A stretch of DNA of 45,774 nt from Fibrobacteria bacterium (lineage in GTDB: Bacteria; Fibrobacterota; Chitinivibrionia; Chitinivibrionales; FEN-1185): positions 1 to 45,774 of the forward strand of contig JBBIGR010000042.1 of the NCBI GenBank assembly GCA_037447435.1, written 5' to 3'. The number at the start of each line of letters is the position of its first letter. Within the stretch, counting starts at the first letter, position 1. The notes beneath the pieces are model-generated. The model ran no database searches, was not told the origin of the DNA, and worked only from the letters and a program-made list of their open reading frames with translations. Positions 15,907 to 45,673 of the stretch are shown piece by piece. The position numbers and the translations under genes are program-made.

Positions 15907-15907
15907 C

Positions 15908-25219: not shown

Positions 25220-25311
25220 CAGAGGGAGCAGGAATCGAACCTGCCACAGACGGTGTTATCCGCCCGCCACTGGTTTTGAAGACCAGCCGGAACACCAGTT
25301 CCAACCCCTCT
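25220..25311 (-). tRNA. selC: tRNA-Sec (anticodon UCA), 92 nt, CCA not encoded
   Basis: AGAGGGG TT GGAAC TGGT GTTCC G GCTGGT CTTCAAA ACCAGT G GCGGGCGG ATAACA CCGTCTGT G GCAGG TTCGATT CCTGC TCCCTCT G: 6-bp anticodon stem, 4-nt D loop, long variable arm, G73. Confidence 0.95.
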
Positions 25312-26524
25312 ACAAACAAATTCCTTTCAACAAAGTTTCGATTTTTCTCCTATCGCTTTTCGAAACAAACCGGTGAACGGGAATGGTAACTACCAAATCC
25401 GAACACTGCTTTGCTTTAGGGAAAGCATTTGCTGCAAACCCGGTCACTTGCGGCAATTGATTCAACGGCAACGGGTAGGTTATAGTGATTCCCAAACCCT
25501 GTAAATTACTCAGTTTCAATATCTTTTTACAAAGTTCTTTGCTGTGCATTCGTATGGGAAATCGCAACAAATCCCGAGCTGCCGAATTTGTTTTGGCAAT
25601 ACTATCGATTCCGGGTAATTGATTTTTATTAAAAAAAGACACCCAAAACGAACTATTTTCATATCTTTCTTTCCGTATTTTTTCCAAGGCTTTTACCCAA
25701 TTCCACGACAGTCCTGCCTGAAAAGAACTTAGTTTTCTTATTTTGAAATCTGCTTCGAAATGCGTTTCGCCAAGCCCCAGAAACGGCAGGCTTTTAGGTA
25801 ACCAAAACAACCACGGCCTTGAAAAAATCAAGAGAACCACGGCTTTGAAAATCATCATGCCTATCTCAACTGAATTATGCTTCGGTAATGTTTCAACCAC
25901 GCCATGGACGCCTTGATCAATATCGTTTCTGTTGGTAACAATTATCCCGCCTTCACAGGTCGTATATGCTTTTCCCCGCCCCAAACTGAAAAAACCGACA
26001 TCAGCCTGCAATCCTAAGGGAACCTCATTTTCTTTTCCGCCCATGACCTGCGCAGCATCTTCAACGATAAAAATCGAATCATCGTTGATAAGAGATTTCA
26101 GTTTACTCACATTGGCATGCATGCCGAACAAATGAGTTGCAACAACGCATAATAAACGGTCCTTATTTTTAAGCTCTTTTGTCATCATCATGAAATCAAA
26201 GTCCAAAGTATTAGGGTCAACCTCACACAACCTGACTTTAAAACCTGCCCGTAACACAGCGGATGCGACGCAATAACAATTAAAGGCGGGAATCAAGACC
26301 TCGTTTTTTTCCGGACTCAGTTTATGCAAAGATTTTAAAATGCAATACAAAGCCGTTTTACCCGACGAGACGGTTTCACAATGGGACACGCCAAAAACCT
26401 GTTTCAATTCATTGGTAAACTGCGTCTGGGATTTTTCCCAAGAGAACATACCCGCAACACCGCTGAAAATGTTTCCAAGCGTAAGTGGCGCCAAGGCCGG
26501 GGAAAGTACTCTGCCGATTTTCAT
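25310..26524 (-). CDS. DegT/DnrJ/EryC1/StrS-family PLP enzyme
   Basis: SSGKTAL, EVLIPAF, HLFG, IVEDAAQ, FFSLGRGK..EGG, TIPVH. Confidence 0.88.
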   Translation of the reverse strand: MKIGRVLSPALAPLTLGNIFSGVAGMFSWEKSQTQFTNELKQVFGVSHCETVSSGKTALYCILKSLHKLSPEKNEVLIPAFNCYCVASAVLRAGFKVRLCEVDPNTLDFDFMMMTKELKNKDRLLCVVATHLFGMHANVSKLKSLINDDSIFIVEDAAQVMGGKENEVPLGLQADVGFFSLGRGKAYTTCEGGIIVTNRNDIDQGVHGVVETLPKHNSVEIGMMIFKAVVLLIFSRPWLFWLPKSLPFLGLGETHFEADFKIRKLSSFQAGLSWNWVKALEKIRKERYENSSFWVSFFNKNQLPGIDSIAKTNSAARDLLRFPIRMHSKELCKKILKLSNLQGLGITITYPLPLNQLPQVTGFAANAFPKAKQCSDLVVTIPVHRFVSKSDRRKIETLLKGICL

Positions 26525-27597
26525 AGGGGAATTTGTTTACGGATAATAGGACCCAAAATTTTAGTTACGGCAAGCGGGAGTTTTTGCCACACTTTTATGA
26601 AAAGCTCCTTTTTCATACTGTTTCCTTCAAGCGGATTTGAGATCTTATCGCGGGTGAGGTAATACCAATATAAGGGTTCGGGTCTGGCACCCCACTGTTC
26701 CTTGAAACGATAGGTCCCTTCTTCTTTTGTAGAGCGTCCAAAATCAAATGATTCGTATTTATTGGCTATTGCATATTCCATCATGCTCCAATATAAAAGC
26801 ATGTTGGGAGCGATGGGACGGTATTTTTTATTGAACGAGGCCCATGGATTAACCAAAGATTTTTTCATTCCTGCAACCAGCGAACATGCTATAGGCATAT
26901 TGTCTTTGTAAACGACAAAAATCCGAGCATCTTTGCCGAAATGACCGAGCGTATTGGCCATCATCGATTTATGATGTACCGGCGATCCTAAATCGCGCAT
27001 ATTATGCACAAAAACCTTATAGAAATCGTCGAGCAATTCAATACCGCCGTTTTTTGCGATACAGCCTTCTTTCTGGGGTTTTCTAATTTGGCTGCGAAGC
27101 TTTGGATCAAAACTTTTAAAGAGTTTTTCGGCGGTATCCGGCAAATCCAGTTTCATGCGCACCTTTTCGGCCGACACGTGCAGCCGATCCCGTTGCACTC
27201 CGGACACTGTCGATTGGGTTTGCAAGAAAGGAATCGCAAACGTTTGTCGAAGTTCCAAACAATCGAATTTGTTCGAATGAAGCAGGGAAACGGCTTGTTC
27301 TAAAAGCAATTTCCCCGCTTCCTCATTGTCATATAAAATCCCTCCGTAATCGCAAAACCCCAACGATACGATGTTTTTTCCGAACAAGGCGCCGCTGACA
27401 AAAAACAGAGGCAATATGCCGACTATTGTTCCATGATGACCGTCGAATGCGGCTAAATAAGAGGTTTTATGGCCGTAGGTTTTTTCAATCGCGCTTCGAA
27501 ACGCATAGCAATGATATACGGAAGCGTTGGGGTGTACATTCACATACGCGTCCCAAAGGGATGATTCGTCGGAGGATATTGCTTTAATGGAAATCAT
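26521..27597 (-). CDS. FemAB-related GNAT protein (type found in exopolysaccharide / PEP-CTERM loci)
   Basis: WDAYV..H, GILPL, FCDYGG, KLRSQIRK, NMRDLGSP, PNMLLYW, FDFGRS..GTYRFKEQWGA. Confidence 0.88.
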   Translation of the reverse strand: MISIKAISSDESSLWDAYVNVHPNASVYHCYAFRSAIEKTYGHKTSYLAAFDGHHGTIVGILPLFFVSGALFGKNIVSLGFCDYGGILYDNEEAGKLLLEQAVSLLHSNKFDCLELRQTFAIPFLQTQSTVSGVQRDRLHVSAEKVRMKLDLPDTAEKLFKSFDPKLRSQIRKPQKEGCIAKNGGIELLDDFYKVFVHNMRDLGSPVHHKSMMANTLGHFGKDARIFVVYKDNMPIACSLVAGMKKSLVNPWASFNKKYRPIAPNMLLYWSMMEYAIANKYESFDFGRSTKEEGTYRFKEQWGARPEPLYWYYLTRDKISNPLEGNSMKKELFIKVWQKLPLAVTKILGPIIRKQIPL

Positions 27598-28304
27598 AAT
27601 TGTAACTGTGATTCCTGCCTCAACGCTTCCAATAATTGTACCGGCGTGAGCATGGTAATTTTATGAGGGAAATCGATATGCGGTTCGCAACAAAGCGCAC
27701 ATTTATAATTTGAAGCCACTTCGTACAATTTAAAATGCATTTTCGGTATTTCCCTAAAAACCTCCATTCCTAAATGGCAAGTATCGGGCAATACGCAAAA
27801 ACTTTTTAGGGATAACGATAGGCCTTTTCCAAGTGCCTTTACATAGCTTTCTTTTAACGTCCATAATTCAAAAAAAATCTCCGCCTTTTTCTCTGTCAAC
27901 GTTTTTTCCAAATAATCATATTCTTTTTCATGAAAAAACCGCTTTGCGATATCATTATCGCATATCCTTACTTTTTCTATATCGATTCCTACAGGAGTAT
28001 CGCTAATTGCACATGCAATAAACTCATGTGAATGCGAAACATTAAAATGAATCTTTTCTTCTCCATCGAGGTATGGCTTGCCGAATTCGTCGATTTTGAA
28101 CACGATTTCCGAGGTAGGCACGTGAGCAAATCTCGAAATGCAATATCGTGCGAGAAGTTCGCCGATAACGCTTCGGCACGCATCTTCATGGCGGAGAAAA
28201 CGTTTCGCCCGTTCTTTTCTGGAATCGGATACGAGCGTTAGCATTTCATCGAATTGGCCGGAAAGCAAATTGTTTGAATGAGATGTTAGGACAATTTGGA
28301 TCAT
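27594..28304 (-). CDS. Sfp-type 4'-phosphopantetheinyl transferase
   Basis: FGKPY, FNVSHS, VGIDIE, FFELWTLKESYVKALGKGL; start put at ATG 28304 (ORF open to 28397). Confidence 0.93.
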   Translation of the reverse strand: MIQIVLTSHSNNLLSGQFDEMLTLVSDSRKERAKRFLRHEDACRSVIGELLARYCISRFAHVPTSEIVFKIDEFGKPYLDGEEKIHFNVSHSHEFIACAISDTPVGIDIEKVRICDNDIAKRFFHEKEYDYLEKTLTEKKAEIFFELWTLKESYVKALGKGLSLSLKSFCVLPDTCHLGMEVFREIPKMHFKLYEVASNYKCALCCEPHIDFPHKITMLTPVQLLEALRQESQLQL

Positions 28305-28536
28305 ATACTTTTTATTAAAGACCTTTTGCCATTTTTTTATGAAGGAGCCTGAATAAAAATAAGACAAAAACGTCACTGTACTGTGTAAATGGAACAAGGA
28401 AATACTATTGCTCCACCCTTCATAGGAATGGTATATTTAACATGGTACATTAATATAGTATTTGGATGGAATTCGCTCTTCAGATTTAGTAAACGGTCGA
28501 TTTCGGCGATCTGGAAACCTTTTTATTGGACTTATA

Positions 28537-30897
28537 ATGAATACTTTGCCCTCTCGAATGACGCAAACAAAGCCCCCGCCGGGGTTGGATTACTTTATTC
28601 CCCATTATTTGAATTTAATTTGGCGATGGAAATGGTATATAGGTATTGTTACCCCCGTTGTTTTTCTCTGCTGGAGTTTTGCCGTTGTAAAATTCGGACC
28701 TACAAGGCAATACTTGGAAAGTGTTGCTGTTTTAGAATTTAATAAATCGAGCGGACCGACAAATCAATCGAACCAATCTTTATCTATTCAGCAATCAACA
28801 TGCGATGCTTTTATTCATAGCAGACCGTTTCTTGAATCTATAGTTCAAAAACATTCATTGCAACTTATCGTGCAGAAAGATTTTCGCGGATATGTATTCG
28901 ACAGTGTATCGGTAGAAAACGACGCACCGCAGGGTATTTATAATTTTGTCGTTGAAAAAGGCAACTATACCCTTTATTTCACCAACAAACAAAGATTGAT
29001 TGAAAAAAAAGTGATTGGCGCCGGCAGAATTTCTGAACTTAATTCAATTGCATTTCAATCGGTTTTTGTAAAATTTACCAAAGATTTTCTGTATGAACCG
29101 CATTCGGTAACTTTTAATATAATCGGTATGCGCGATGCAATAGACCGGGTGCTTGGAAACCTTTCGACCAAATTTCCGGGAGATAGAGAAAGCGGTTTAC
29201 AGGGTACAATCATGACCATTTCCCTAAAAGGCAACGATTACCCGCTTGTCACACAAACCGTAAACACGATAGCCGATGATTTTGTTGCCCATAACAACGA
29301 AATTATTCGATTAAAGAAATCCGGCAATGTTCAAATCCTTGAGAAACAACTGCAATCCGCCCATGAGGATCTCGAAAACGCCGAAGGTGCAATGCGACAT
29401 TTTCGTGAAGCAAACCTTTCCGTGGGCACAACGAGCGGACTTTCCTCTTCAATAAACGAAGTTTCCAACCTTGAAAATTCGGTTACAAACCTGCAGCGAT
29501 CGATCGACGATGCCGTCACCTTGCAAACACGCAGCAAGAACGCCACGACTTCCGACGACAAGCTTGCCGTCATGTATGAAGCGATTACTTTTCTTTTAGG
29601 TCATCAATCGGTTTCCGCTCCCGGATTGCAATTGGAACTCAATGAAGTAAGCAATGAAAAACATCGTATCGACGCGGATTATTCGCCCCAACATCCAATG
29701 GCTGTCGAAAACAGGAAAAAAATCGACAACCTTGCAAAGAATATTTTCGATGTCCTTGCGAATTTAATTGACAAAATGCGATCCGACGTAACGGTGGCGA
29801 CCACAAAAAAGAGGAACATTTCCGAAGAGTTTCAAAAACTTCCTGCCAAAGAGCTTCAATATGCCGACCTGGAACACCGACGCTCCTCTGCAATGGAATT
29901 GTATTCGAGTATGCTCAACCGGTATACTGCAAGTAAAATGGCGGAAGAAACGGAAACCGCTGAAATATCTGTACTTGATCACGCAGTGGCTCCTTATTCT
30001 CAAAGCCGATTCCAACAATTGATGCAATTGATGTTGATCGGATTTCTTGTCGCAATAGTCGTCGGGATAGGGCCTGCGGTTATACTCGATTATATTGACA
30101 AAAGGGCTTGGAGTGAAGGAGATTGCCGACGATTTTCCAATTTTCCGTTTTTAGAAGGAATACCGATTAATCCGATTTCCGATAAAACAAAAAAACCGAG
30201 CAAAGACAAAATAGACCCGTTTCTCGTTGCTGCAACATTTGAACCGTATTTATTCGATGAAATGTACCGTTCGCTCAGGACCAAAATTCTTCTTCATTTG
30301 CACAATGAGCAAAATAAAATGTTGGTCGTCACCAGCCTCGACGTTAACGAGGGGAAATCGTTGACATCGGCTAATATTTCAATTGTCATGGCGCAACAAA
30401 AACTACGAACGCTCCTTATAGACGGCGATATGCGAAAAGGCGTTCAACATCATTCCTTTGTATTGAACAAAAAACCGGGATTATCTGAAATCCTTTCCTC
30501 CCAATGCGATTTATCGGCATTGCCAATGCAATCGTTTATCCAAAAAACCCATATACCTTTTCTATCACTTATTTCCAGCGGCATGCCGATTCCAAATCCG
30601 GCGGAATGCATGAATTCTAATAAATTTCGCGAGCTTATTCCCATCCTTACGGAATGGTTTGATGTGATCGTGCTCGATACGCCGCCGCTCCGCGTTGCAG
30701 TCGATGCGGCGATTTTACCGGAAGCTTTTAATCATTATATTCTTGTGGCCAGAGCCGAATCCACCAATTTGGTTGCGTTGGAAAAGAAAGTTGGTGATTT
30801 TCCCGGACTTCGAAAAAAAGTACTTGGAATCGTATTAAACGGGGCGCCAGTAGACAATAAAATGCATAATTATAAATATTCTTATTATCATCAATAA
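28537..30897 (+). CDS. wzc: Wzc-type polysaccharide co-polymerase / BY tyrosine autokinase
   Basis: Two TM helices flanking a coiled coil; YRSLRT, Walker A VTS..NEGKS, IDGDMRK, LDTPP; C-terminal Tyr cluster NYKYSYY; start uncertain (28462-28558). Confidence 0.92.
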   Translation: MNTLPSRMTQTKPPPGLDYFIPHYLNLIWRWKWYIGIVTPVVFLCWSFAVVKFGPTRQYLESVAVLEFNKSSGPTNQSNQSLSIQQSTCDAFIHSRPFLESIVQKHSLQLIVQKDFRGYVFDSVSVENDAPQGIYNFVVEKGNYTLYFTNKQRLIEKKVIGAGRISELNSIAFQSVFVKFTKDFLYEPHSVTFNIIGMRDAIDRVLGNLSTKFPGDRESGLQGTIMTISLKGNDYPLVTQTVNTIADDFVAHNNEIIRLKKSGNVQILEKQLQSAHEDLENAEGAMRHFREANLSVGTTSGLSSSINEVSNLENSVTNLQRSIDDAVTLQTRSKNATTSDDKLAVMYEAITFLLGHQSVSAPGLQLELNEVSNEKHRIDADYSPQHPMAVENRKKIDNLAKNIFDVLANLIDKMRSDVTVATTKKRNISEEFQKLPAKELQYADLEHRRSSAMELYSSMLNRYTASKMAEETETAEISVLDHAVAPYSQSRFQQLMQLMLIGFLVAIVVGIGPAVILDYIDKRAWSEGDCRRFSNFPFLEGIPINPISDKTKKPSKDKIDPFLVAATFEPYLFDEMYRSLRTKILLHLHNEQNKMLVVTSLDVNEGKSLTSANISIVMAQQKLRTLLIDGDMRKGVQHHSFVLNKKPGLSEILSSQCDLSALPMQSFIQKTHIPFLSLISSGMPIPNPAECMNSNKFRELIPILTEWFDVIVLDTPPLRVAVDAAILPEAFNHYILVARAESTNLVALEKKVGDFPGLRKKVLGIVLNGAPVDNKMHNYKYSYYHQ

Positions 30898-31146: not shown

Positions 31147-32271
31147 ATGGATAAGAATGATGAAGCCTATTTTGATCTGGAATTTTACGCAGATAACCAA
31201 GTAGCGCATACCCATCTGTTTGAGAAACAAAAAACGGACGAAAAGCGAAAAGCGAAAATGCCTGTAAAACCACACAAAAGCCTTCCTGAGGCGACTACGT
31301 GCAAAGACGAGGAACCGTTGTTCGATGTTGGCACCCAAATTCCATCGGACCAACACCATAACACGAAAAAAAAAGAATCAATTCCCGAAATCTTTGGATA
31401 TACCCATGTCGAAGTTGTCAAAAGACCCGAAGGAATAGTACAATTAGCAAAGGTAATTACAACTTTATCGGGCCAAGCAAAAACCGTCCCATTTTCAAAA
31501 TCGGTTTTAAGCCCCAAAAAACCCATTATTTCCACAATTTTCACAAAAAACATCATGAACCAAGAAGAACTTCATACACCTGCAAGCAAAGAGCAACCGC
31601 AAGATAAACCCCTTCCGGTGGCGACCCGATTTTCCACTTTAGCAAATCCATCGGAATTTAAAGCGTTTGTTTTTGAGAACCTGGCAGAAACCGGTTGTTT
31701 TGGCATTGCCTTAAAAGGAAGATTCGAACATTTGCACCAAAGTAAGTTTGATGCATTTTTGGATGTCAACTTGCCAACGGACGGAAGGCTTGTTATTCTG
31801 GATTTAGACGGTCTTATTTCAATTAGTTCTTCCGGTTGGGGAGTATTGATTGCCCAATTACAACGTGTAAAAAAAAATGGGGGCAATATAGCCTTATGCG
31901 GAATGCATGGCGAAGTTGAAAATTGTTTTAAAATCCTTGAACTCGGAGCGCTTTTTCCGGTTTTCCCAACAATCATTGATGCTTTGAAAAATCCGGGCTT
32001 AATGGTTTCCAAGTACTCAAATGGTAAAAAATCAAAGGTATCTTCTACGGCGCATCAGGATGCGGACGCCCCGGCTTTGTTGCCATTAGAGGATAAAATT
32101 AAGCGCATCATTGTGGAAAACCCAGTCATTAGCCTCGGCGAAATATCCCGGTTATTACGAAGCTCATTGTACGGCAAGATAAAAATAGACAACAGAACGT
32201 TGCGCGAGAAGCTATCGGCCATGAATCTGGGTACCAAGGAAGAAAGACTGCGTTATTTTCGTTCGGCATAA
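31147..32271 (+). CDS. STAS (anti-sigma antagonist) domain protein with low-complexity N-terminus and helical C-terminal domain
   Basis: VILDLDGLISISSSGWGVLI..GGNIALCGM..FKILEL STAS signature. Confidence 0.72.
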   Translation: MDKNDEAYFDLEFYADNQVAHTHLFEKQKTDEKRKAKMPVKPHKSLPEATTCKDEEPLFDVGTQIPSDQHHNTKKKESIPEIFGYTHVEVVKRPEGIVQLAKVITTLSGQAKTVPFSKSVLSPKKPIISTIFTKNIMNQEELHTPASKEQPQDKPLPVATRFSTLANPSEFKAFVFENLAETGCFGIALKGRFEHLHQSKFDAFLDVNLPTDGRLVILDLDGLISISSSGWGVLIAQLQRVKKNGGNIALCGMHGEVENCFKILELGALFPVFPTIIDALKNPGLMVSKYSNGKKSKVSSTAHQDADAPALLPLEDKIKRIIVENPVISLGEISRLLRSSLYGKIKIDNRTLREKLSAMNLGTKEERLRYFRSA

Positions 32272-32312
32272 AGTTTCCGTCAATATTACTTGTTAACCAG
32301 GAGTTGCATTTC

Positions 32313-33104
32313 ATGACAAGACGCGGCATTGATATTTCATATCAAACATTGGTACACCTGTCTGTTTTATTTCTAGGAATACTGTGGGTACCGGCGCTGT
32401 CTCAAAACAAAGCGATTAAATTCGACAATGTTCGACAAGAAGATACCGCTGCTCACAAAATCCAATCCGTACCTGCGACACAAACTTCCCGTGCTGAAAA
32501 ATTGGGCTCAACGGGAGGTTTTGTAAACGCCGGGGAGGCTATCAGGATTTATGCGTTTCCCGATACGAATTCCTTTATCAATGGTTTTTACCCGGTGGAC
32601 GGCAAAGGGCGAATTTATTTGCCCATTATCGGGAAAATGGACGTGACCGGAATGAGCGAAAAGGATTTTTTGGACTCCCTTAAGGCGCAATATATAAGTT
32701 ATCTCAGGTATCCGAATTTGCAAGTACGACGTCTTATTAGGATTAGCCTTTTGGGCGGCTTTCAAAAGCCGGGATTGTACTTTATTGATCCGGATTATTC
32801 TTTATGGGACGCGGTTTTTCAAACGAACGGAACCATTCGGGAAGACGGGTTGAAACGAATGAAATGGGAACGCGACAGAAAAATAGTTTCCGACGACATT
32901 ATTCCTTTTTATCAATCTGGCCAACCGTTGAGCACTATCGGTTTTCACTCGGGGGACCAGTTGTGGACTCCGACGGAGCCAAAAAGCAACTGGTGGAACG
33001 TTGTCGTAAAGGACATTATGCTGAGCCAAGTTTTCCCGATTATCACTACCAGCGCTTCGATATTTATCAGCTATATGATGTATAAGACGTATCAAAGTCG
33101 TTAG
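32313..33104 (+). CDS. Polysaccharide export protein, Wza/OPX-like with SLBB domain
   Basis: GEAIRI, VDGKGRIYLPIIG, ISLLGGFQKPGLY, SGDQLWTP, C-terminal helix; RBS AGGAG. Confidence 0.82.
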   Translation: MTRRGIDISYQTLVHLSVLFLGILWVPALSQNKAIKFDNVRQEDTAAHKIQSVPATQTSRAEKLGSTGGFVNAGEAIRIYAFPDTNSFINGFYPVDGKGRIYLPIIGKMDVTGMSEKDFLDSLKAQYISYLRYPNLQVRRLIRISLLGGFQKPGLYFIDPDYSLWDAVFQTNGTIREDGLKRMKWERDRKIVSDDIIPFYQSGQPLSTIGFHSGDQLWTPTEPKSNWWNVVVKDIMLSQVFPIITTSASIFISYMMYKTYQSR

Positions 33105-33321: not shown

Positions 33322-34182
33322 ATGATAAGACAATTCTTAAAAAACGCCATAAATCTTACCGGCTTGGAAATTAAGCGGGCTTTGAAAAGCGATCCGGACA
33401 TCGGATTATACGAGGCCATTTATGCAAAAGAAAGTGTTGAAAATCGACGGTTTTATAATATAAGCGCAGGAGGACATTTTGATTTCGGTTGCGGAATTCA
33501 TCATCCTTGCTGGACAAATATCGATGTGATGAAACCATGGCCGCATAAAAATGAATATGACCCCCGGCTCGACATTGCTCATGACCTTTTATTGCAACAA
33601 CCGATTCCCCTCGAATCAAATACTGCAGAATTAGTTTATTCGAGAATCAGCATCGAACATATCACCGACGAAGCAGCCCTTTTTATGTTTAAGGAAGTTA
33701 AGCGCATTCTTAAACCTAAAGGTGTTTTTCGAATTGTCACTCCGAATATCGATTTGGATTACCGGGCATTTATGACCAATGATAAACGATATTATTATTG
33801 GTTCGACAATCAGCCGGAAGTATCGATCGAACAAGCTTTCCTAATTCATTTTGCAGCACATGCTTCTCCGTTGACGCTTAATACTGCACCGGATAAAATT
33901 TCGGATGAACAATTCAGGAACCTTTTTAAAACAATGACCTTTGAAGAGGCCATGAATTTCTGCACCTCAAAATGCCGGATCGATGTGCAAACAAAAATGA
34001 GAGAATTCCATATCAATTGGTGGAATGCAAAAAAACTGGAACGGATGCTCGGGCTCGCCGGATTTAAATCAATGTATATTTCCGCTCCGTTGCAAAGCAT
34101 TTCGCCGGTTCTGCGCAACGAATACTTTTTTGACAATGTGTACAATAAGGTCATGTTATATATGGAAGTCATCAATACCTAG
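33322..34182 (+). CDS. Class I SAM-dependent methyltransferase-like protein
   Basis: YNISAGG..WTNID, IEHI, EVKRILKPKGVFRIVTP. Confidence 0.72.
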   Translation: MIRQFLKNAINLTGLEIKRALKSDPDIGLYEAIYAKESVENRRFYNISAGGHFDFGCGIHHPCWTNIDVMKPWPHKNEYDPRLDIAHDLLLQQPIPLESNTAELVYSRISIEHITDEAALFMFKEVKRILKPKGVFRIVTPNIDLDYRAFMTNDKRYYYWFDNQPEVSIEQAFLIHFAAHASPLTLNTAPDKISDEQFRNLFKTMTFEEAMNFCTSKCRIDVQTKMREFHINWWNAKKLERMLGLAGFKSMYISAPLQSISPVLRNEYFFDNVYNKVMLYMEVINT

Positions 34183-34196
34183 AAAAAGGGCCAGCG

Positions 34197-36176: not shown

Positions 36177-36242
36177 TAGGATTTTCTCACAAGAACTTTT
36201 ATTTTCTTTGATGATACACAGACTTAAACGATAGGTTGCACA

Positions 36243-36491
36243 ATGGAATCACTTATCCAAAAAAAATTATTGGAGTTCATTTGTCGAAATTATATGGTTG
36301 AGGAATATGAAATAAATTTGGACAAATCCCTTGTCGATGAAGGAATCATCGATTCTTTTGGTTTGGTCGAAATTTCTTCCTTTTTAAAAAAGGAATTCGC
36401 TATTACTATACTGGAAAACGAAATGAATCGTGCTAATTTCGGTTCTGTTTTGAAAATTGTCTCTTTCATAGAACGAAAAAAAACGGTATGA
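36243..36491 (+). CDS. Stand-alone acyl/aminoacyl carrier protein
   Basis: 82 aa, acidic, GIIDSFGLV with the Ppant serine. Confidence 0.88.
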   Translation: MESLIQKKLLEFICRNYMVEEYEINLDKSLVDEGIIDSFGLVEISSFLKKEFAITILENEMNRANFGSVLKIVSFIERKKTV

Positions 36492-37528
36492 ATACAACAG
36501 TTTCCCGTTGCACCCGCTGTGTGCTTTCGAAAGAATTCCCAAAAATCGCCTTCGATGAAAATGGGGTATGTAATTTTTGCCGTAACGAAATGTTTTATAC
36601 ACTTGGAACCGATGTTATCGATTCTTCAAAAAAAACAATCGCCGAACTCCTTGACGCGCACCGAGGAACATCGTCCTATGATGCGGTCATGTGCTTTAGC
36701 GGAGGGAAAGACAGTACCTATACGCTCATGCTCTCGGTAAAAAAATACGGACTTAAAGTGCTGGCATTCACTTTAGATAACGGCTTTATTTCTCCGGTTT
36801 CGTTTCAAAACATAACGCGGGTTGTGGATTCGCTTGGCGTTGATCATGTTACCCTTCGCCCCTCGTTGAACAACCTGAAAGCTATTATCAGGGCCAGTGC
36901 ATTGCACCCTATTTACAACCCAAAAACACTAACAAGGATTTCCTCAATCTGCAATTCTTGCATATCAATAGTCAATATGACCGCTTTAAAATTTGCCTTG
37001 GAGAAACGAATTCCCTTTATTGTTGCCGGATTTACTCTCGGTCAAATTCCTGCAAATAGTATTGTTTTCAAAAACAATTATCAATTTCTTGAAGAAAGCA
37101 GGGAACAATCGCTATCGAAGCTCCGTGACGAGGCGGGGAGCTGCGTCGACGATTATTTCTGTATTGACCCTAAACTCCTTTCCGAATCCTCTCGCTTTCC
37201 ATATAACCTTAACTTGTTATGCCTCGAAGATATCACAGAATCGGAGATTCTCAATCGAATTCAGGAGTTTGGCTGGATAGCGCCAAAAGACGTTGACGGC
37301 TGTTCTTCCAATTGCAGGCTCAATACATTCAACAACTATGTCCACGAAAAGCAATTCGGATACAGCCCGTACGAACTTGAGTTGAGTCATTTGATACGAA
37401 AGGGGCAACTCACCAGAGATGAAGCATTGCAAAAAATTAATTCCAAACCGATTGGTCAATTGCAGTCGATCATGAATGAACTTCGGATTACCGAAGCCGA
37501 GCTCCCGAACGTGGTGTTAGGCTCATGA
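36488..37528 (+). CDS. Cys-rich PP-loop ATPase (AANH superfamily; N-acetyl-sugar amidotransferase / thiotransferase-like)
   Basis: CTRC..CNFC N-terminus, SGGKDS, CNSC, GCSSNC, IRKGQLTRDEAL. Confidence 0.8.
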   Translation: MNTTVSRCTRCVLSKEFPKIAFDENGVCNFCRNEMFYTLGTDVIDSSKKTIAELLDAHRGTSSYDAVMCFSGGKDSTYTLMLSVKKYGLKVLAFTLDNGFISPVSFQNITRVVDSLGVDHVTLRPSLNNLKAIIRASALHPIYNPKTLTRISSICNSCISIVNMTALKFALEKRIPFIVAGFTLGQIPANSIVFKNNYQFLEESREQSLSKLRDEAGSCVDDYFCIDPKLLSESSRFPYNLNLLCLEDITESEILNRIQEFGWIAPKDVDGCSSNCRLNTFNNYVHEKQFGYSPYELELSHLIRKGQLTRDEALQKINSKPIGQLQSIMNELRITEAELPNVVLGS

Positions 37529-39174
37529 CTGCGGCTGTAGAGCGGGAATCCTTATATAGGGTCGCTCCTGTTTCAGCAATGCAAATGCAATTTTGGGTTC
37601 TCAACGCGATGAACCCGGAGAGTTCCGCATATCACGTGCCATCGGTGATGCGAATCGAAGGTCCCTTACAACGTCCTGTTTTGCTGTCTGCAATCAATGA
37701 AATCATTTCCAGACACGATGTCCTCCGAACCGTTTTTAAATATGAAAAGACCGAACTGACTCAAAAAATCATTCCCGTACAAACGATTGATTTGCCTGTC
37801 GAATCGGTCGAAACCCTTGACCCCGCGCAAAAGCAAGATTCAATAGAAAATCTTATTTTTTCCGAAATTTCCAAACCTTTCAACCTTGAATCAGGACCAT
37901 TAATCCGTTCTCGTTTAATTCGGGTTTCCTTGACAGAACACATATTAGTGTTAACAATCCATCATTGCATATTCGATTTGCGATCAAAAGACTTGTTCAG
38001 CCTTGAGCTTTCAAATCTTTACAATGCAAAAACAAACGGACGCTTGTACCAAACGACAAATCATAATAATCAATATGCAGATTTTTGTCATTTCCAAAAG
38101 CAATGGATGCAAAGTAAAGATTTTCAGACAATGCTAACCCATTGGAAAAATAAAGTTTTAAATCCGGGCGAGACCATCAACCTTCCAATGCAAAGATTGC
38201 GGCCAAAAAAGCGTTCGTTTCGCGGAACCGCCATACCGTTTGAATTCTCGCCTTTAGAAGTTTCCGCAATCAAACGGTTTTGCGATGCTGAAAACACCAC
38301 GCCCTATTTACTACTTCTTACCGGCTACTTTATTCTCCTTTGCCAGTATACCGGACGCACATCGCTAACACTTGGAATACCTTTGTCGAACCGTCGAAAA
38401 GAAGAATTTAAAAATGTGATGGGGTGTTTTGTGAATACGATTCCGCTCACGGTTTGCATTCCGGATTCCTTCAGTTTTCAAGACTCCTTACAGGCAGTAA
38501 GGAGGGAAATGCTTGTGTGCCACAGGATCCAAGAAATGCCGTATCAGGCTATTGTCCAAATCAGCAAAACAAGTCGCGATGCGAGCACAAACCCATTGTT
38601 CCAATTCGGTTTTACATTTGAGCACCCCATGAAATTGGATTTTGACGGTTTGCGAGTAACTCCAATACCAACACATCACGGCGGCTCTCAATTGGATATG
38701 TTCGCTACGTTCTGGGAAGAGGCTAACGGCATTTTCGGTTTTTGGGAGTATTCCACCGACATATACGAAAAGACCGCGGTTGAAAAGATCATTCTTGACT
38801 ATAGGAATATTCTTAATAAATCATTGCAACAACCGGCACTCCCGATTCCCTCTTTAGTTAGGTCGGAAGACAATAACCGATATGTTTCGATATCTCTTGG
38901 ATCGGAACACTCTGTTTCGGAAATAGCCGCTCTTATAAAAGACCAAATTTCCAAGATAATGGAAATTGACTTTCAATCGATTCCCGATTCCGTGCCGTTT
39001 TTAAAAGCGGGCATTAATTCCTTAGCGCTTGTCCGACTTTCCAACAGAATTAAATCCGTTTTTTGCGTACCTGTATCTCTTCGCCAATTAGTACGCGATT
39101 GCAATACAATTGTTGCCCTTTCTTCGTTCATTTTCCAAAAAATATCAGAAAACAACCATTCGGTTGATCCATGA
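37525..39174 (+). CDS. NRPS-like protein: condensation domain plus carrier domain, no A domain
   Basis: SAMQMQFW, RHDVLRT, HHCIFD, GCFVNTIPL; C-terminal GINSL carrier motif. Confidence 0.88.
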   Translation: MTAAVERESLYRVAPVSAMQMQFWVLNAMNPESSAYHVPSVMRIEGPLQRPVLLSAINEIISRHDVLRTVFKYEKTELTQKIIPVQTIDLPVESVETLDPAQKQDSIENLIFSEISKPFNLESGPLIRSRLIRVSLTEHILVLTIHHCIFDLRSKDLFSLELSNLYNAKTNGRLYQTTNHNNQYADFCHFQKQWMQSKDFQTMLTHWKNKVLNPGETINLPMQRLRPKKRSFRGTAIPFEFSPLEVSAIKRFCDAENTTPYLLLLTGYFILLCQYTGRTSLTLGIPLSNRRKEEFKNVMGCFVNTIPLTVCIPDSFSFQDSLQAVRREMLVCHRIQEMPYQAIVQISKTSRDASTNPLFQFGFTFEHPMKLDFDGLRVTPIPTHHGGSQLDMFATFWEEANGIFGFWEYSTDIYEKTAVEKIILDYRNILNKSLQQPALPIPSLVRSEDNNRYVSISLGSEHSVSEIAALIKDQISKIMEIDFQSIPDSVPFLKAGINSLALVRLSNRIKSVFCVPVSLRQLVRDCNTIVALSSFIFQKISENNHSVDP

Positions 39175-42100
39175 TGAACGGGAACAAGACCTCTCATACC
39201 GCCGGATTTTCTGCTCCGACAGCCGATGCGCAGCAAGAAATCTGGATTTCCAGTACATTGGATGAAAAAGCTTCGTGTTCATACAATATATCCTGCACCA
39301 TTTTCCTTAAAGGTCCGTATCGGATAAATACGCTTATCCGTGCTATTCATCAAGCAACTGGCAACCATGATGCTCTATGGGCGAAATTCAGCAACCACGG
39401 CGATTATATGATTAGTCAAGAATCAAGGCCGCATGAAATCCCGATACTTGATATAAGCGCCTTATCCGCCGAAAAGCATGCAATAAAACTGAACGAGTTA
39501 CTGTCTCACGAAATTTCCTATCCATTTATTTTAGACAAAGGACCGCTTTGGCGGGCAACGGTTGTTATTATTTCCTCGCAAGAATGTCGAGTTCTTTTTA
39601 CTGTCCATCAAATTATTTGCGACAGATGGTCCTTAAACGAACTTGCAAGAGACATCGGAAATTGCTATTCCTCAATCATAAAGGAGACGGCAGCACCTTT
39701 TTCAATTGGCGGTTCATTTTTTTCCTATTTACTAGACATACGTGAACACACCAAAGAAACTCAGGATTTTTGGGTTGGCCAATTCCAGGGTCAATTGCCC
39801 GTACTCGATTTGCCGCTTGATATCCCTCGACCTTTTCGGCGATCGTATAATGGGTCTACTGAAATCCGCATGTTCGACAAAAACCTTGTCAACAGTATTA
39901 AAAAGCAAGCTTCGTTCCTCGGGACGGACTGGTTTACCCTTATTCTTGGGGCTTTTGTCGTTTTCCTTAAAAAACTTTCGGGAGAATCCGACCTTGTAAT
40001 AGGAATACCTGCTGCAGGTAAAAAAAGTCTAGACCACCCCTTGGTCTTCGGTCAATGTGAAAACTTACTGCCGTTCCGTGTTTTCGTCGATCCGAACGTT
40101 TCGTTTGCGGCATTGATCCAATCCGTAAATAGAAGGCTCAAACTTTCCTTTGAAAACAATGGGGTCTCATTAAGCTCGATTTTTAAGCTACTGCGTGTAC
40201 AAAGAGATCCAAGCCGAGCACCGTTGGTCTCGGTTGGATTTTGCGCTATCGAAGATTTGAAGTCCGAGGACCTTGGATTTTTCAACCTTGAATCATCCTT
40301 TGCCCTTAATAAAAAGAAATACGAAACCTTTGAGCTTAATGTGACTGCGGAATTGCAGCAGAACGGTATAAAATTGGTATGGAACTATAATTCCGATTTG
40401 TTTACCGCCGGGTCCGTATCACGGTGGGCAAACGAGTACGAAGTCCTTTTGCGTTCGGCGGTAAAAGATGCATCTTGCTTATTACGCAACCTTCCAATCC
40501 TTCCGCCGATTGAAAAAGAACTTGTTTTACATCAATGGAACGACACATTACGGCTTTACCCTGCCGACAATACCGTTGTCGATTTATTTCAAAAGTGTGT
40601 GAATTTGTTCTCAGGGTCTATTGCGGTCGAATGCAATGGACGGCAATTAACATATCGAGAACTCGATAATAATTCCTCAAGTTTCGCAAAATATCTTTCC
40701 GATAACGGTGTCGGCGAAGGTTCAACTCTCGCCATTTGCATTGACCGATCGGTCAATATGCTCGTTGCGCTTTTGGGGGTTCTTAAAAGCGGTGCGGCAT
40801 ACGTTCCGGTTGATCCGATGTTTCCCCGGTCAAGGATCTCTCATATTATTTCCGACAGTAACGCCAGTTATCTTATAACGCAATCAGACCTTCCCATAGA
40901 TATCGGGCCTTGCGGAATTCCTATTGTTTTTATTGACGAAATTGTGTTTACGGAGACACTGTTTTCAAGTAGGGCCAAACAAAACAGCCTCGCCTATATT
41001 ATTTACACATCCGGATCGACTGGAAAGCCGAAAGGCGTTGAAATTTGTCATAAATCCCTAACGAATTTCCTTTTTTCGATGCAGGAGAAACCGGGATTAT
41101 CTCCTCATGATACGGTTCTTTCCGTAACGACGATATCGTTCGATATTGTTGGTTTGGAGTTACTATTGCCCCTGACCATCGGTGCTAAGGTGGTTATTGC
41201 AGAAAGCGACATTGTTGCAGACGGCTCTTCCCTTGCAAGCAAAATAACATCCCTTCGCCCGGCATTGATGCAGGCCACGCCTTCGACCTGGACAATGTTG
41301 CTGGAAGCAGGTTGGCGCGGTTCAAAAGATCTTACAATTCTCTGCGGAGGTGAAGCGCTTTCCAGACATCTGGCCGACCGCCTTTTGGAAACCCAAGCCA
41401 CTGTGTGGAATATGTATGGCCCCACCGAGACAACGATTTGGTCATCTATGCTTCGTGTTCAACCGGGCGTTACGGCTCCTTCAGTCGGCTATCCGATAGC
41501 AAACACGCACATGTATATTCTTGACGAGACCCTTCAGCCTGTTCCAATCGGTGTTGATGGAGAACTTTGCATCGCCGGTTTTGGCTTGGCAAAAGGCTAC
41601 CATAATTGCCCGGAATTAACATTTGATAAATTTCTCCCAAATCCCTTTGCAGATATTCAGGAGAAATTCGGATATTCGAAAATTTTTAAAACCGGAGATA
41701 TTGCCCGACGTTTGGCCGATGGGTCAATCGTGATTGCCGGCAGGAAAGACAATCAGGTCAAGATTCGCGGTTTCCGAATTGAATTAGGCGAAATCGAATC
41801 AACGCTTTTAGCAATGGCGGAAATCCTCGAATGCGTTGTTGTTGATCAGGTTGATTCAAACGGTGCGAAAAATCTTATCGCATACATCGTATACAGAAAT
41901 GGTAAAAATCTTCCCGTAGACGTCCTTCAATCATATCTCCGCGGCTTGTTGCCTGGCTATATGATTCCATCGCAATTCATTACGCTTTTATCAATTCCGC
42001 GACTTCCAAACAATAAGGTAAATCGCTCTGCGCTCGCCTTTAAAGAACCGACGTCAAGGCCATTATTCGTTCCGCCAAACAACGACATTGAAAAAGCTTT

Positions 42101-42380
42101 ATCGTCTATATGGGGCGATGTCCTGGGAAACGACAATTTCGGAGTTCTTGACAATTTTTTTGATCTGGGCGGTCATTCTATGGCAATGGTAAAAGTTTTG
42201 TCAAAAATTCAAGATACAATTAAGATCACTATTGAATTATCCGAATTATTTGACTTCCCGACTATCCGCGAATTCGCACAGTATTTACAAAAAAAGAAAT
42301 ACGGTACTCTTCTTTTCAGTTCAATCGTTGATCGAGCTAAAAACCAAAAAAAAGCTTTTTACCGGCATAGGAGTTCGTAA
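39171..42380 (+). CDS. NRPS module C*-A-T, predicted glycine-activating
   Basis: YTSGSTGKPKG, YGPTETT, KTGD, KIRGFRIELGEIE, PNNKV, GGHS; code read by eye DILQLGMIWK; C motif HQIICDR. Confidence 0.92.
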   Translation: MMNGNKTSHTAGFSAPTADAQQEIWISSTLDEKASCSYNISCTIFLKGPYRINTLIRAIHQATGNHDALWAKFSNHGDYMISQESRPHEIPILDISALSAEKHAIKLNELLSHEISYPFILDKGPLWRATVVIISSQECRVLFTVHQIICDRWSLNELARDIGNCYSSIIKETAAPFSIGGSFFSYLLDIREHTKETQDFWVGQFQGQLPVLDLPLDIPRPFRRSYNGSTEIRMFDKNLVNSIKKQASFLGTDWFTLILGAFVVFLKKLSGESDLVIGIPAAGKKSLDHPLVFGQCENLLPFRVFVDPNVSFAALIQSVNRRLKLSFENNGVSLSSIFKLLRVQRDPSRAPLVSVGFCAIEDLKSEDLGFFNLESSFALNKKKYETFELNVTAELQQNGIKLVWNYNSDLFTAGSVSRWANEYEVLLRSAVKDASCLLRNLPILPPIEKELVLHQWNDTLRLYPADNTVVDLFQKCVNLFSGSIAVECNGRQLTYRELDNNSSSFAKYLSDNGVGEGSTLAICIDRSVNMLVALLGVLKSGAAYVPVDPMFPRSRISHIISDSNASYLITQSDLPIDIGPCGIPIVFIDEIVFTETLFSSRAKQNSLAYIIYTSGSTGKPKGVEICHKSLTNFLFSMQEKPGLSPHDTVLSVTTISFDIVGLELLLPLTIGAKVVIAESDIVADGSSLASKITSLRPALMQATPSTWTMLLEAGWRGSKDLTILCGGEALSRHLADRLLETQATVWNMYGPTETTIWSSMLRVQPGVTAPSVGYPIANTHMYILDETLQPVPIGVDGELCIAGFGLAKGYHNCPELTFDKFLPNPFADIQEKFGYSKIFKTGDIARRLADGSIVIAGRKDNQVKIRGFRIELGEIESTLLAMAEILECVVVDQVDSNGAKNLIAYIVYRNGKNLPVDVLQSYLRGLLPGYMIPSQFITLLSIPRLPNNKVNRSALAFKEPTSRPLFVPPNNDIEKALSSIWGDVLGNDNFGVLDNFFDLGGHSMAMVKVLSKIQDTIKITIELSELFDFPTIREFAQYLQKKKYGTLLFSSIVDRAKNQKKAFYRHRSS

Positions 42381-42382
42381 CC

Positions 42383-45300
42383 ATGACCAATCAAACGCCT
42401 ATCAATTCTCCTCAATTGGCACGGTCCCTTGCCCAATCGAACACGCTCGTTCCGACAACCGAGCAACAACGCGATATTTGGTCTTCGATCGCTTCAGGGC
42501 GTATTGAGCCGTGTTGCTTTAACCGTTGCCTTTTAATGTCGTTTTCAAACAAAAACATTTTAACCCCGGATACGCTCCGCAAAGCTGTCGGCAATCTGAT
42601 ACTCCGCCACGATGCGTTACGCTTGGTATTTGTTAACAATGGAATGGATATGGACATTTGTGAACCGGGAGCGACGGATTTCTCTAAACTTTCGGGGTTT
42701 TCTGCAGAAACGGTATCGATTCAGGAAGCCGTTCGCCAAGAATCGACGACACCATTCGACATTGAAAACGGACCACTTTGGCGTTGCAGGATCATTACTG
42801 CCGATGCGACGTCGCAGCAAGTATTGCTTTTCACGGCACATGCGCTTATTTGCGACGAATGGTCCTTATATGTTGTTCAGCGAGACCTGATCACTTTTTT
42901 CGACTCGCCGCCTTCCGAAAGTACAATAGATTCGTCAATCGCAAGCAAGTTCAGCGATTTTGCAAAAGACCTATCCCTTCATGTGCAATCTTCGGAATTT
43001 CGGATTGATGAGGCCTTTTGGCATTCTCGATTTCCTACGGGGATTCCGGCTGCCGATATTCCGTTTGATTATCCACGCCCCTCGAAAGGATCATTTACTG
43101 TTGCAACTAAAGTACGCATCATCGATTCCGCGCTAACATCACAAATAAATGCCTATTCTGTCGCATCCGGTCTCGGCACATATGCCGTTGCCTTAACAGC
43201 TTATTTTATTTTGCTTCGTCGATTAAGCGGTTCTGCCGATATTACGATTGGCGTTCCTTTTGCCGGGCAACTTCACGCCGACAAATTGGATTTAATTGGG
43301 CATTGCGTCGATGTATTGCCGCTATTACAGTCTGTTTCACCTGCTGAGACATTTGAGTCGATCACGCAAGCGGTTCAAGACATTTTTCTTGATACAATAG
43401 ATCACCGAACATTTCCTTTGGGTAGACTTATCAAGAAATTGAATCTTGACAATAGTCCCGGTCATCAGCCTGTTTTGCCTCATTTTTTTTCATACAAGGC
43501 CACACCGGATGATACAATTACTAATCTAGTTGCGCATTGTGAATTAATCCCCTCTTGCTACGATACCGTTGATTTGAATTTTGCCGTCAAAGAAGCTTCC
43601 GGCTCACTTGAGGTTAGTTGCGCGTATAACACCCAATTGTTTGGGCCACAGACGATTGAGCGTTATCTCGGCTTTTTCGAGTCAATACTTCGAGCAGCGA
43701 TCGCTAACCCCGCAATCCCGGTCGGCCGAATTCCCCTTATGGAGCAAAAAGAGCAGAAAAAAGTATTGGTCGATTGGAATGCGACCAGAACCGATTTGCC
43801 TTATGAAACGACACTGCATAGTCTTATTAATAAGCAAGTTTTAAAATCTCCTGCCGCGTGCGCCGTATTGTACGAAAAGCAAAGTCTTTCCTACAAAGAG
43901 CTCGATGATTGGTCGAACTCCATAGCCTGCATTATTTGCAAGCACGGCATTTCGAAAAATGCGATTGTCGCTATTTGTGCATACCGTTCGCTTGAAATGA
44001 TGGCCGGCCTATTAGGAATCCTTAAGGCCGGTGCCGCATATTTGCCTTTGGATTCGGAAAACCCTCAGGCAAGAATCGATTTCATTTTGAAAGATTCTTC
44101 TTCTCGGGTGTTGCTTGTCCAACGCGATCTTTTCAGGAGGTTTTCGCTCCCGCAGTCGACAACACCTATCATTCTCGAAGACACGCGCAATGTCGAAAAC
44201 GGTAACGACCCGGCTATGTACCCATTGTTTCAAGCGACGCCCGACGATATTGCATATGTCATATACACCTCAGGTTCAACGGGAGACCCTAAGGGCGTCA
44301 TGGTACCGCATCGCGGTATTTGCAACCGACTTTTATGGATGCAAAAGGAATTTGAATTGACTTGCCAGGACAAGGTTCTCCAAAAAACGCCATACACCTT
44401 CGACGTCTCGGTATGGGAATTTTTCTGGCCCTTGATCGCAGGGGGCACGATTGTGTTCGCAAAACCGGACGGCCATAAGGATCCCGATTATATCGCCACT
44501 ATTATTCGCGCCGTTGGAATAACGATAATCCATTTTGTTCCCTCTATGCTTGCCGTATTTGTTGAAGCGCCAGATGCACCCAGGTGCGCTAGTTTACGAT
44601 ATATAATTTGCAGCGGGGAAGCTTTGACCGGAGCACATCGGGACAGGGTCTTTTCGCGGATGCCATCCTCGGTCCGATTATATAACCTTTATGGACCCAC
44701 GGAGGCTTCGGTGGATGTTTCTTATTGGGAATGCACACGGGCAAATACCTCTCCTATCGTCCCTATCGGCAGACCGATCGCCAACACGTGCCTGTTTGTA
44801 CTTGACGAATTCGATCAGCCTGTCCCCATCGGGGTCAGGGGCGAGCTCTTTATCGGCGGCATTGGCCTTGCCCGAGGATATCTTAATAAACCAGGGTTAA
44901 CGCAAAAAAGCTTTGTTTCCAGCCCCTTTCCCTGTCAGATTCCGGGGACCGACAACAAACTGTACCGTACCGGCGATCTGGCCCGATGGCTTGACAATGG
45001 AACAATAGAATTTCTTGGACGGTTGGATTTCCAGGTAAAAATACGGGGGTTCAGGATTGAACTCGGCGAAATCGAAGGTCGCATCGACCGGATCGAGGGC
45101 GTCATAGAATCGGCAGTCAAATGTTTTACAGACGATACAAACGACAAATTGCTTGTTGCATTCGTCGTTGCAAAAAAATCTCTCGCCCCTGATACGCATA
45201 CGATCCGTGAAAAATTGCGCAGCGATTTGCCCTATTATATGATACCTTCTCAAATTGTTTTCTTAGACTCTCTGCCGCATTCTTCCTCGGGAAAAATCGA

Positions 45301-45673
45301 CCGAAAGTTATTGAGTTTTGACAAAAAAAAGCAAGAGCATCATCAGCGGTCCATAATTCCGCCTCGAAACGAGACCGACCGGATATTGGCCGAAATTTGG
45401 ACAAAAGAACTTAAATGTTCCTCAATATCAATTTCTGAAAATTTTTTTGATCTTGGCGGTCACTCCTTACTCCTTGTTAAAATCAACACTGCGATAAACG
45501 AGCGGCTCGATCTTTCGCTCCCCCTCATCTCGCTGTTTGAGCATCCGACCATAGCCTCATTATCGGACCATATAACCCAAACCACCCTAGAAACTTCCCC
45601 GCAGGAAACCGTCCGCAACCGCGCGCTTCTGCAGCGCGAGGCCTTAAAGAAAAGAAAAATGAAAATCGAATAA
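42383..45673 (+). CDS. NRPS module C*-A-T, predicted serine-activating
   Basis: YTSGSTGDPKG, YGPTEA, YRTGD, SSGKID, GGHS; code read by eye DVWHISLVDK; C motif HALICDE. Confidence 0.92.
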   Translation: MTNQTPINSPQLARSLAQSNTLVPTTEQQRDIWSSIASGRIEPCCFNRCLLMSFSNKNILTPDTLRKAVGNLILRHDALRLVFVNNGMDMDICEPGATDFSKLSGFSAETVSIQEAVRQESTTPFDIENGPLWRCRIITADATSQQVLLFTAHALICDEWSLYVVQRDLITFFDSPPSESTIDSSIASKFSDFAKDLSLHVQSSEFRIDEAFWHSRFPTGIPAADIPFDYPRPSKGSFTVATKVRIIDSALTSQINAYSVASGLGTYAVALTAYFILLRRLSGSADITIGVPFAGQLHADKLDLIGHCVDVLPLLQSVSPAETFESITQAVQDIFLDTIDHRTFPLGRLIKKLNLDNSPGHQPVLPHFFSYKATPDDTITNLVAHCELIPSCYDTVDLNFAVKEASGSLEVSCAYNTQLFGPQTIERYLGFFESILRAAIANPAIPVGRIPLMEQKEQKKVLVDWNATRTDLPYETTLHSLINKQVLKSPAACAVLYEKQSLSYKELDDWSNSIACIICKHGISKNAIVAICAYRSLEMMAGLLGILKAGAAYLPLDSENPQARIDFILKDSSSRVLLVQRDLFRRFSLPQSTTPIILEDTRNVENGNDPAMYPLFQATPDDIAYVIYTSGSTGDPKGVMVPHRGICNRLLWMQKEFELTCQDKVLQKTPYTFDVSVWEFFWPLIAGGTIVFAKPDGHKDPDYIATIIRAVGITIIHFVPSMLAVFVEAPDAPRCASLRYIICSGEALTGAHRDRVFSRMPSSVRLYNLYGPTEASVDVSYWECTRANTSPIVPIGRPIANTCLFVLDEFDQPVPIGVRGELFIGGIGLARGYLNKPGLTQKSFVSSPFPCQIPGTDNKLYRTGDLARWLDNGTIEFLGRLDFQVKIRGFRIELGEIEGRIDRIEGVIESAVKCFTDDTNDKLLVAFVVAKKSLAPDTHTIREKLRSDLPYYMIPSQIVFLDSLPHSSSGKIDRKLLSFDKKKQEHHQRSIIPPRNETDRILAEIWTKELKCSSISISENFFDLGGHSLLLVKINTAINERLDLSLPLISLFEHPTIASLSDHITQTTLETSPQETVRNRALLQREALKKRKMKIE

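Follow-up and report, generated by a model that had tools for sequence, protein, structure and literature searches.

Several described systems resemble, part by part, the locus considered here, a gene cluster on contig C42 (JBBIGR010000042.1) of a Fibrobacteria bacterium, where a hybrid nonribosomal peptide synthetase (NRPS) and polyketide synthase (PKS) assembly line lies among polysaccharide genes. The window analysed, 45,774 nt, is the entire contig. Carrier- or tRNA-dependent aminoacylation of envelope glycans is known, Dlt being an example, and MBOAT-SGNH systems, likened to the present locus through a nearby MBOAT gene, reportedly modify envelope glycans. PKS-like genes occur in capsule loci (wcbR, rkpA), and the thioesterase (TE) of Pks13 is a sugar acyltransferase. 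The latter systems share with our locus a PKS among polysaccharide genes and, as proposed here, TE transfer to a sugar, but their products are of the lipid type and they have neither an NRPS nor an AsnB-ACP-AANH core (ACP, acyl carrier protein). Dlt, MBOAT-SGNH and the Wbp/Vim systems move a single residue, with no condensation or ketosynthase step, unlike the line described here. In published work, Ser or Gly is placed on an amino sugar, the Wbp/Vim linking sugar, and FemAB-like and AsnB-like genes occur in polysaccharide loci (PMC7468200). Similarly, in the peptidylamido-glycan of type B flagellin from Clostridioides difficile, taurinyl-Ala-Gly acylates an amino sugar derived from a DegT-type enzyme (PMC5207245).

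Other precedents concern the assembly line itself. CtaC of closthioamide is an Fe-S thioamide synthetase that acts on carrier-bound substrates only and needs D77, S78, C154, C157, and C284 (PMC6772006). Like CtaC, the AANH protein of the window has an SGGKDS motif and a CxxC...C triad and is encoded beside a free carrier. In contrast to closthioamide, an NRPS-independent and secreted antibiotic, it has an obligate AsnB-ACP partner and stands with canonical NRPS and PKS modules. NRPS/PKS-type homologs of CtaC were listed in 2019 in Gynuella sunshinyii, Pseudoalteromonas sp. NBT06-2 and Alteromonadaceae Bs31 (PMC6772006, Table S5, which holds unrelated "Other" entries too); the same three organisms, identified by name and not by accession, are among our AANH matches. 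The polysaccharide context of the cassette is unmentioned in the available portions of the main text and supplement of that study. As for AsnB with a free ACP, published work describes how such a pair amidates a malonyl or succinyl starter bound to a carrier (bioRxiv 10.64898/2026.04.24.720606). The GbnA/GbnC (gladiolin) and MgsC/MgsD (glutarimides) systems of that source likewise have an AsnB homolog beside a free ACP, upstream of the assembly line, a likeness of gene layout and not of compared sequences. GbnC/MgsD systems, however, prime trans-acyltransferase (trans-AT) PKSs via the ketosynthase (KS), whereas the present PKS is a cis-AT single module; the Fibrobacteria line also differs in having AANH as a third enzyme, a distinct clade of condensation (C) domains as likely acceptor, and no dedicated loading AT beside the ACP. 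In the openly accessible literature (bioRxiv supplements lie outside this scope), no report was found of an NRPS or PKS acting on a Wzc/Wzy polysaccharide, or of the cassette itself, and a term search of the main text of the epsSMASH preprint gave no mention of NRPS or PKS. Single parts of the system have precedents, and the link to polysaccharide is unreported in the literature searched.

From the gene content and motifs of this locus, we propose, with a probability of about 0.6, that a hybrid NRPS-PKS line within a Wza/Wzc/Wzy locus builds a short, carrier-bound acyl-Ser/Gly-ketide unit, probably with a thioamide, for the polysaccharide. An initial annotation of the window had overlooked two features that determine the likely chemistry, the conserved AsnB-ACP-AANH core and a cysteine triad like that of CtaC. 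At E ≤ 1e-10, AANH has 2070 homologs. In the best 120 phmmer matches (57-78% identity, self excluded), D75 and S76 of the SGGKDS motif are conserved in 120/120 and 119/120, and C155, C158, and C276 are Cys in 120/120; every full-length homolog of 37% identity or more keeps the same three. C272 is not constant among distant members. This triad is missing from paralogs of the WbuX type, the host's own copy on contig C8 among them. The context of C276, S-S-N-C-R-L, compares with S-S-G-C-K-L around C284 of CtaC (primers of PMC6772006, by eye), so that the equivalence of the cysteines comes from spacing and primer context and not from a full alignment. An exact scan of metagenome contigs with the ctaC primer stretch gave no match. 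Against TIGR03573 (WbuX, N-acetyl sugar amidotransferase), AANH scores 160.7 bits, below the cut-off of 203.2. Taken together, CtaC-type thioamide formation by AANH appears slightly favoured, amidine formation is unlikely, and a nitrile or another product is rather improbable. AsnB, for its part, has its glutaminase Cys and adjoins the free ACP, as do the starter amide synthetases of the glutarimide/gladiolin type, and is predicted to be an amide synthetase for an ACP-bound acyl group. Neither the window cluster nor C67, the contig that continues it, shows a recognisable sulfur-relay gene; the cta cluster likewise has none (PMC6772006).

The only three C domains of the genome are those of the window cluster, and C0 alone has an intact catalytic His: the second His, kept in C0, is lost in C1 (HQIICDR) and C2 (HALICDE). 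A quick tree built from 67 C domains places C0 in a clade of 52 (SH-aLRT 99), mostly HHxxxDL and cassette-associated; C1 and C2 are outside it on long branches, and their exact place is unsure. PDB sequence searches assigned no subtype to C0 or C1. The code of the second adenylation (A) domain was read by eye, and from the Stachelhaus codes we take the first and second A domains to specify Gly and Ser, respectively. The thiotemplated route and the Gly and Ser specificities put forward initially are both supported. Ser and Gly codes recur among homologous loci; in some Bacteroidota and in Pseudoalteromonas, their second residue varies. One C domain with two A domains is a common arrangement (L016/17, L018/19, L025, L027, L029, L047, L052, L060, L064). 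Moreover, loaders made of an A and a carrier (T) domain without any C domain are the normal form in G050 and G058, of the same order as the host, and in L027, L029, L052, and L060; the degenerate C1 and C2 therefore fit the logic of the family.

The window ends in a multicopy insertion sequence (IS). The two types of IS end number 14 and 10 in the genome; each of the ten right ends pairs with a left end via an exact 8-bp target duplication, and C42 pairs with C67 only, through TGATACTA. These duplications allow ten contig pairs of the assembly to be joined, and 23 other contig ends carry the IS. Its length is about 1.36 kb; in run X2, a record of 1360 letters matches the two IS ends, oriented as expected. 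Depths of C42 and C67 in run X1, which may be the source sample, are 7.6 and 7.8. No contig or record spans the C42-C67 join, with or without the IS, and we infer the join from the target duplication and equal depth. The IS is intergenic, between the last NRPS gene and the PKS, and cuts no gene. Given this join, the cluster does run beyond the right edge of the window, as had been suspected, and the reported absence of a TE is true of the window and not of the cluster, whose TE is on C67 in a KS-AT-ACP-TE protein. The KS, AT, and TE catalytic motifs of this PKS are intact, and its AT motif, HAFH, is presumably of the malonyl type. The order NRPS then PKS, or a fusion of both, is also found in homologs. 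After the PKS, C67 encodes on the same strand a GT4 and a GT2 glycosyltransferase (GT), a small membrane protein, Wzy_C, four secreted-type proteins, an MBOAT protein ending in FLYFQF and a truncated gene; the contig ends inside a gene, and the continuation of this far end was not found. Because C67 adds the PKS and then GT and Wzy genes, the assembly line has polysaccharide genes on both flanks. It is complete, with A, T, an active C, KS, AT, ACP, TE and a phosphopantetheinyl transferase (PPTase), two of its three C domains being degenerate; among the components of a Wzx/Wzy-type locus, Wza, Wzc, Wzy and glycosyltransferases are present. Exosortase (PF09721), a mark of PEP-CTERM/exosortase A systems, has no match in the host genome G000 (99.6% complete) and is present in the orthologous loci of G003 and G101. 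Other PKS/KS or A-domain genes of the genome were considered as partners of the line and rejected: C40 encodes an A-T-hexapeptide-repeat protein, and C21 carries a separate A-ACP-AsnB-NadE-like set. The latter (L002:1163-6692), a second carrier set of the host genome, also includes a hexapeptide-repeat (LbH) protein and lies beside a glycosyltransferase.

On the basis of gene content, motifs, conservation, linkage, and contig pairing, we infer the following route. Sfp would prime five carriers. A malonyl-type diacid on the free ACP would then, rather likely, be amidated by AsnB in the manner of GbnC/MgsD. AANH might next adenylate the amide oxygen, which an Fe-S-bound sulfide would replace as in CtaC, with a little better than an even chance. 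C0, the sole active C domain, would join the amidated unit and/or Ser to Gly, the order of steps being uncertain; with degenerate C domains, A1-T1 and A2-T2 would serve as loaders. The PKS would add one malonate without reduction. Finally, the TE, or the adjacent MBOAT system, would probably pass the unit to the polysaccharide repeat, at an amino or hydroxyl group.

The distribution of the cassette was followed in a GTDB scan, which gave 80 AANH loci. The analysed set of 47 comprises 45 loci at 50% identity or more, with G050 and G058; three loci on very short contigs (L062, L067, L074) and 32 at 37-45% identity were left out. In the DNA fetched, AsnB and a free carrier protein next to AANH, the latter as for CtaC, are encoded in 47/47 loci, C and A domains in 42, a KS in 39 and the methyltransferase in 14. 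The genomes belong to Bacteroidota, Spirochaetota, Thermodesulfobacteriota, Pseudomonadota, Myxococcota, and Fibrobacterota, and the assembly line within polysaccharide-export clusters spans at least six bacterial phyla. Cultured carriers include Pseudoalteromonas sp. NBT06-2, Desulfoluna spongiiphila and Saccharicrinis sp. FJH54. Only 2/60 relatives of the host have a close AANH copy, and the same-order relatives group with a Fibrobacteraceae genome, in keeping with Fibrobacterota as the phylum of the host. FemAB and degT, taken initially as parts of the cassette, occur in four of the 47 loci each and were rejected as core genes; judging from the loci compared, they belong to the polysaccharide backbone, with which they travel. 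A distant AANH group (L066-L099, for example L071, L083, L098) from Chloroflexota, Planctomycetota and archaea has an ACP, a stand-alone A domain and a NadE-like or AsnB enzyme, in some cases beside an MBOAT in a Dlt-like layout. Since this group also has both, an amide-forming enzyme and a carrier are the usual partners of AANH. In the myxobacterial loci L054 and L056, AANH is seemingly fused to an esterase domain (about 620-660 aa).

The cassette is found near polysaccharide genes far more often than expected. Wza (PF02563) lies within 20, 30, and 40 kb of AANH in 13, 17, and 21 of 47 genomes, where copy number and visible flank predict 0.9, 1.2, and 1.5, and within 40 kb in 9 of the 13 genomes with the full 40 kb on both sides. 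The co-occurrence of the cassette with Wza/Wzc/Wzy loci is non-random across phyla. At least one glycan-pathway gene is present in 31/47 loci and at least two in 25/47; in the host genome, the corresponding figures are 37 and 17 of 192 tiles of 21 kb, a lenient control with references drawn from the loci themselves and extra flanks fetched for 14 genomes only. Overall, 35/47 loci are linked, either by a glycan gene in the fetched DNA or by wza within 40 kb. A possible acyl-transfer enzyme (alpha/beta-hydrolase, AT3, MBOAT, SGNH or LbH) is encoded in 25/47. In L042 and L063, which have no PKS, the order is AANH, a stand-alone C domain of the C0 clade, then DegT.

No other single comparison is as strong as one within the genus of the host itself. 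In G003 (98% complete), AANH is absent and the orthologous locus is recognised by wza (61% identity), wzc (59%), femAB (63%), degT (58%), GT2 (56%), and sfp (45%). Its NRPS is different, A(Ser)-T-C-A(Gly)-T lacking both TE and PKS (G003:C34, L121:11154-18403); genes for two alpha/beta-hydrolases and an LbH protein come next, within one run that also holds a GT4, a pyruvyl transferase, wzy and wzx. In G078 and G092, A-T-C-A(Gly)-T is fused to a C-terminal LbH acyltransferase-like domain in polysaccharide loci (L114:7666-13470, L115:7453-13266). The sets of G003, G078/G092 and L042/L063 and the window cassette look like interchangeable tailoring cassettes, whose products would end on a sugar. 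G003:C34 would be a simpler test case for a peptide-decorated polysaccharide.

Several observations weigh against the reading of a thioamide-bearing unit made for polysaccharide, and rival explanations draw on some of them. The linkage statistics are overstated because kin genomes are not independent. Neither a Wzx flippase nor a priming transferase was seen on C42 or C67 (six PF13440 and five priming-GT matches lie on other contigs). The MBOAT gene is one of five in the genome, is present in 1/47 loci and may encode a mere acetylating enzyme; and one active C domain for two amino acids and a starter gives no simple linear product. The best NCBIfam, PDB-sequence, Foldseek and VIA matches of AANH are N-acetyl-sugar amidotransferases, with 8wex as closest fold (TM 0.67; Z 23.4, rmsd 4.6, 324 residues) and Fe-S thiolases such as LarE and NcsA far behind (Z 10.5-10.8). 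This favours a decoration without sulfur, in which a WbuX/PseA-like AANH would convert the amide to an amidine (or nitrile) with ammonia from AsnB. The glutaminase domain of the always-adjacent AsnB and the want of a sulfur-relay gene, shared by the cta cluster, are consistent with this. It is nevertheless somewhat unlikely, as the WbuX-type paralogs do not have the three invariant cysteines, the score of AANH is under the WbuX cut-off, and CtaC has matching triad spacing and the same S-S-x-C-[K/R]-L context.

Diffusible products are, moreover, usually released by an intact terminal TE. The PKS with its intact TE triad therefore leaves room for a released metabolite, namely an N-acyl-Ser/Gly beta-keto acid, tetramate or lactone merely co-regulated with capsule or biofilm genes. 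Such a PKS is also half of what the initial annotation had named as refuting its own proposal of a peptide-decorated exopolysaccharide, which gains from the polysaccharide linkage and from the TE-less Ser-Gly NRPS of G003. Neither a glycan gene nor wza within 40 kb is seen in 12/47 loci, several of them on short contigs, and about 61 kb read in each of G073, G099 and G086 hold no glycan gene; the cassette of G073 (Gynuella) lies among glycine-cleavage and other metabolic genes. In G075 and G096 (L034, L055), AsnB-ACP-AANH stands with a kinase/AvrD-like fusion, an MFS protein and a porin, without NRPS or PKS, and its product is likely small and exported. Clusters with CtaC homologs and NRPS/PKS genes have indeed been regarded as sources of thioamidated peptides (Dunbar et al., PMC6772006). 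Yet a diffusible product is unlikely in view of the about 14-fold excess of nearby wza, of the TE-less NRPS of G003 and the NRPS-LbH fusions, and of the stand-alone C domain next to DegT without a PKS. Among exporters, for which MFS alone was tallied, matches occur in 2/47 loci, both without NRPS/PKS. It might also be argued that the copy of this strain is decaying or silenced: the IS would stop transcription before the PKS, and the degenerate C domains would be signs of decay. C1 and C2 are on long branches without the catalytic His, and T0 has an atypical motif, GINSL. Every open reading frame (ORF) is intact, however, the IS is intergenic and C-less A-T loaders are a normal form elsewhere, which makes decay quite improbable. 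Production of a carrier-bound unit for the polysaccharide remains our preferred reading.

The features of the cluster are collected in Table 1. The ORF map and family scans confirmed every gene and the two divergent arms at the places initially assigned, as well as the four carrier domains of the window and the single PPTase.

Table 1. Genes and other features of the cluster on C42 and its continuation on C67 (families from profile scans; G003, relative of the same genus).
Feature	Position	Strand	Remarks
DegT-family PLP aminotransferase (amino-sugar synthesis)	25310-26524	-	PF01041; 58% ortholog in G003
FemAB-like GNAT, predicted aminoacyl transferase onto sugar	26521-27597	-	TIGR03019 295.8 bits, cut-off 260; 63% ortholog in G003
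Sfp-type PPTase	27594-28397	-	sole Sfp-like BLAST match in genome
Wzc polysaccharide co-polymerase/tyrosine kinase	28462-30897	+	TIGR01007 above cut-off; 59% ortholog in G003
STAS-domain protein, anti-sigma-antagonist-like	31147-32271	+	PF01740
Wza-like polysaccharide export protein	32304-33104	+	PF02563; 61% ortholog in G003
Class I SAM-dependent methyltransferase-like (weak match), cassette accessory	33322-34182	+	in 14/47 cassette loci
AsnB-type glutamine amidotransferase (N-terminal Cys, PP-loop)	34197-36176	+	TIGR01536 above cut-off; adjoins AANH in 47/47 loci
Free-standing ACP, GIIDSF motif	36243-36491	+	in 47/47 loci
AANH PP-loop ATPase, N-terminal CxxC..CxxC, invariant C155/C158/C276; candidate CtaC-type [4Fe-4S] thioamide synthetase	36488-37528	+	
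C0-T0 didomain (C-T)	37525-39174	+	C0 motif HHCIFDL
C1 (degenerate)-A1 (Gly code DILQLGMIW)-T1	39171-42380	+	
C2 (degenerate)-A2 (Ser code DVWHISLVD)-T2	42383-45673	+	
8-bp target-site duplication TGATACTA	45714-45721	+	pairs C42 end with contig C67
End of multicopy IS, last 53 bases of C42	45722-45774	+	
KS-AT-ACP-TE PKS	L001:11729-15601 (C67)	minus strand of C67	starts ~80 bases beyond duplication

The arms part at 28397/28462, and the likelier start of wzc is the ATG at 28537. From 34197 to 45673, the genes for AsnB, ACP, AANH, the C-T protein and the two C-A-T proteins overlap or almost touch. Scans for promoters and terminators did no better than chance (48 versus 40.2 +/- 6.3 and 23 versus 23.2, respectively). 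The family of the FemAB-like protein, TIGR03019, is also matched by VimA (PMC7468200), and PDB sequence searches assigned no substrate to the methyltransferase. Directly downstream of degT, on the same strand, lie selA-selB (selenocysteine machinery, 21702-25197). The region 34-17417 holds GT2, LPG synthase TM, GT4, MFS, GH3, YfhO, GtrA, LRR and GH88 genes; the MFS gene (3142-4467), 21 kb off the cluster, is the sole transporter match in the window, and two unannotated proteins of 573 and 545 aa are encoded at 4503-7892. Elsewhere in the genome, contig C23 (L004/L005) carries a paralogous wza-wzc locus with two femAB-degT pairs and a priming transferase, and no NRPS match.

The most far-reaching form of the proposal, a thioamide-bearing peptide-ketide acyl group made by a cassette swappable across phyla and attached to a capsular or exopolysaccharide, is possible, though we would not count on it. 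If true, glycans would gain their first thioamidated member, and an assembly line of several modules would be making a surface-polymer decoration and not a secreted metabolite. Genome mining looks to NRPS-PKS clusters for diffusible natural products; if this family decorates polysaccharides instead, silent or orphan clusters of a widespread class have been searched in the wrong fraction. Capsule chemistry would extend to acyl groups built by assembly lines and possibly thioamidated, and phage recognition, biofilm properties and the binding of metals or sulfide would be affected. The family also offers cultured hosts for CtaC-like enzymes outside closthioamide.

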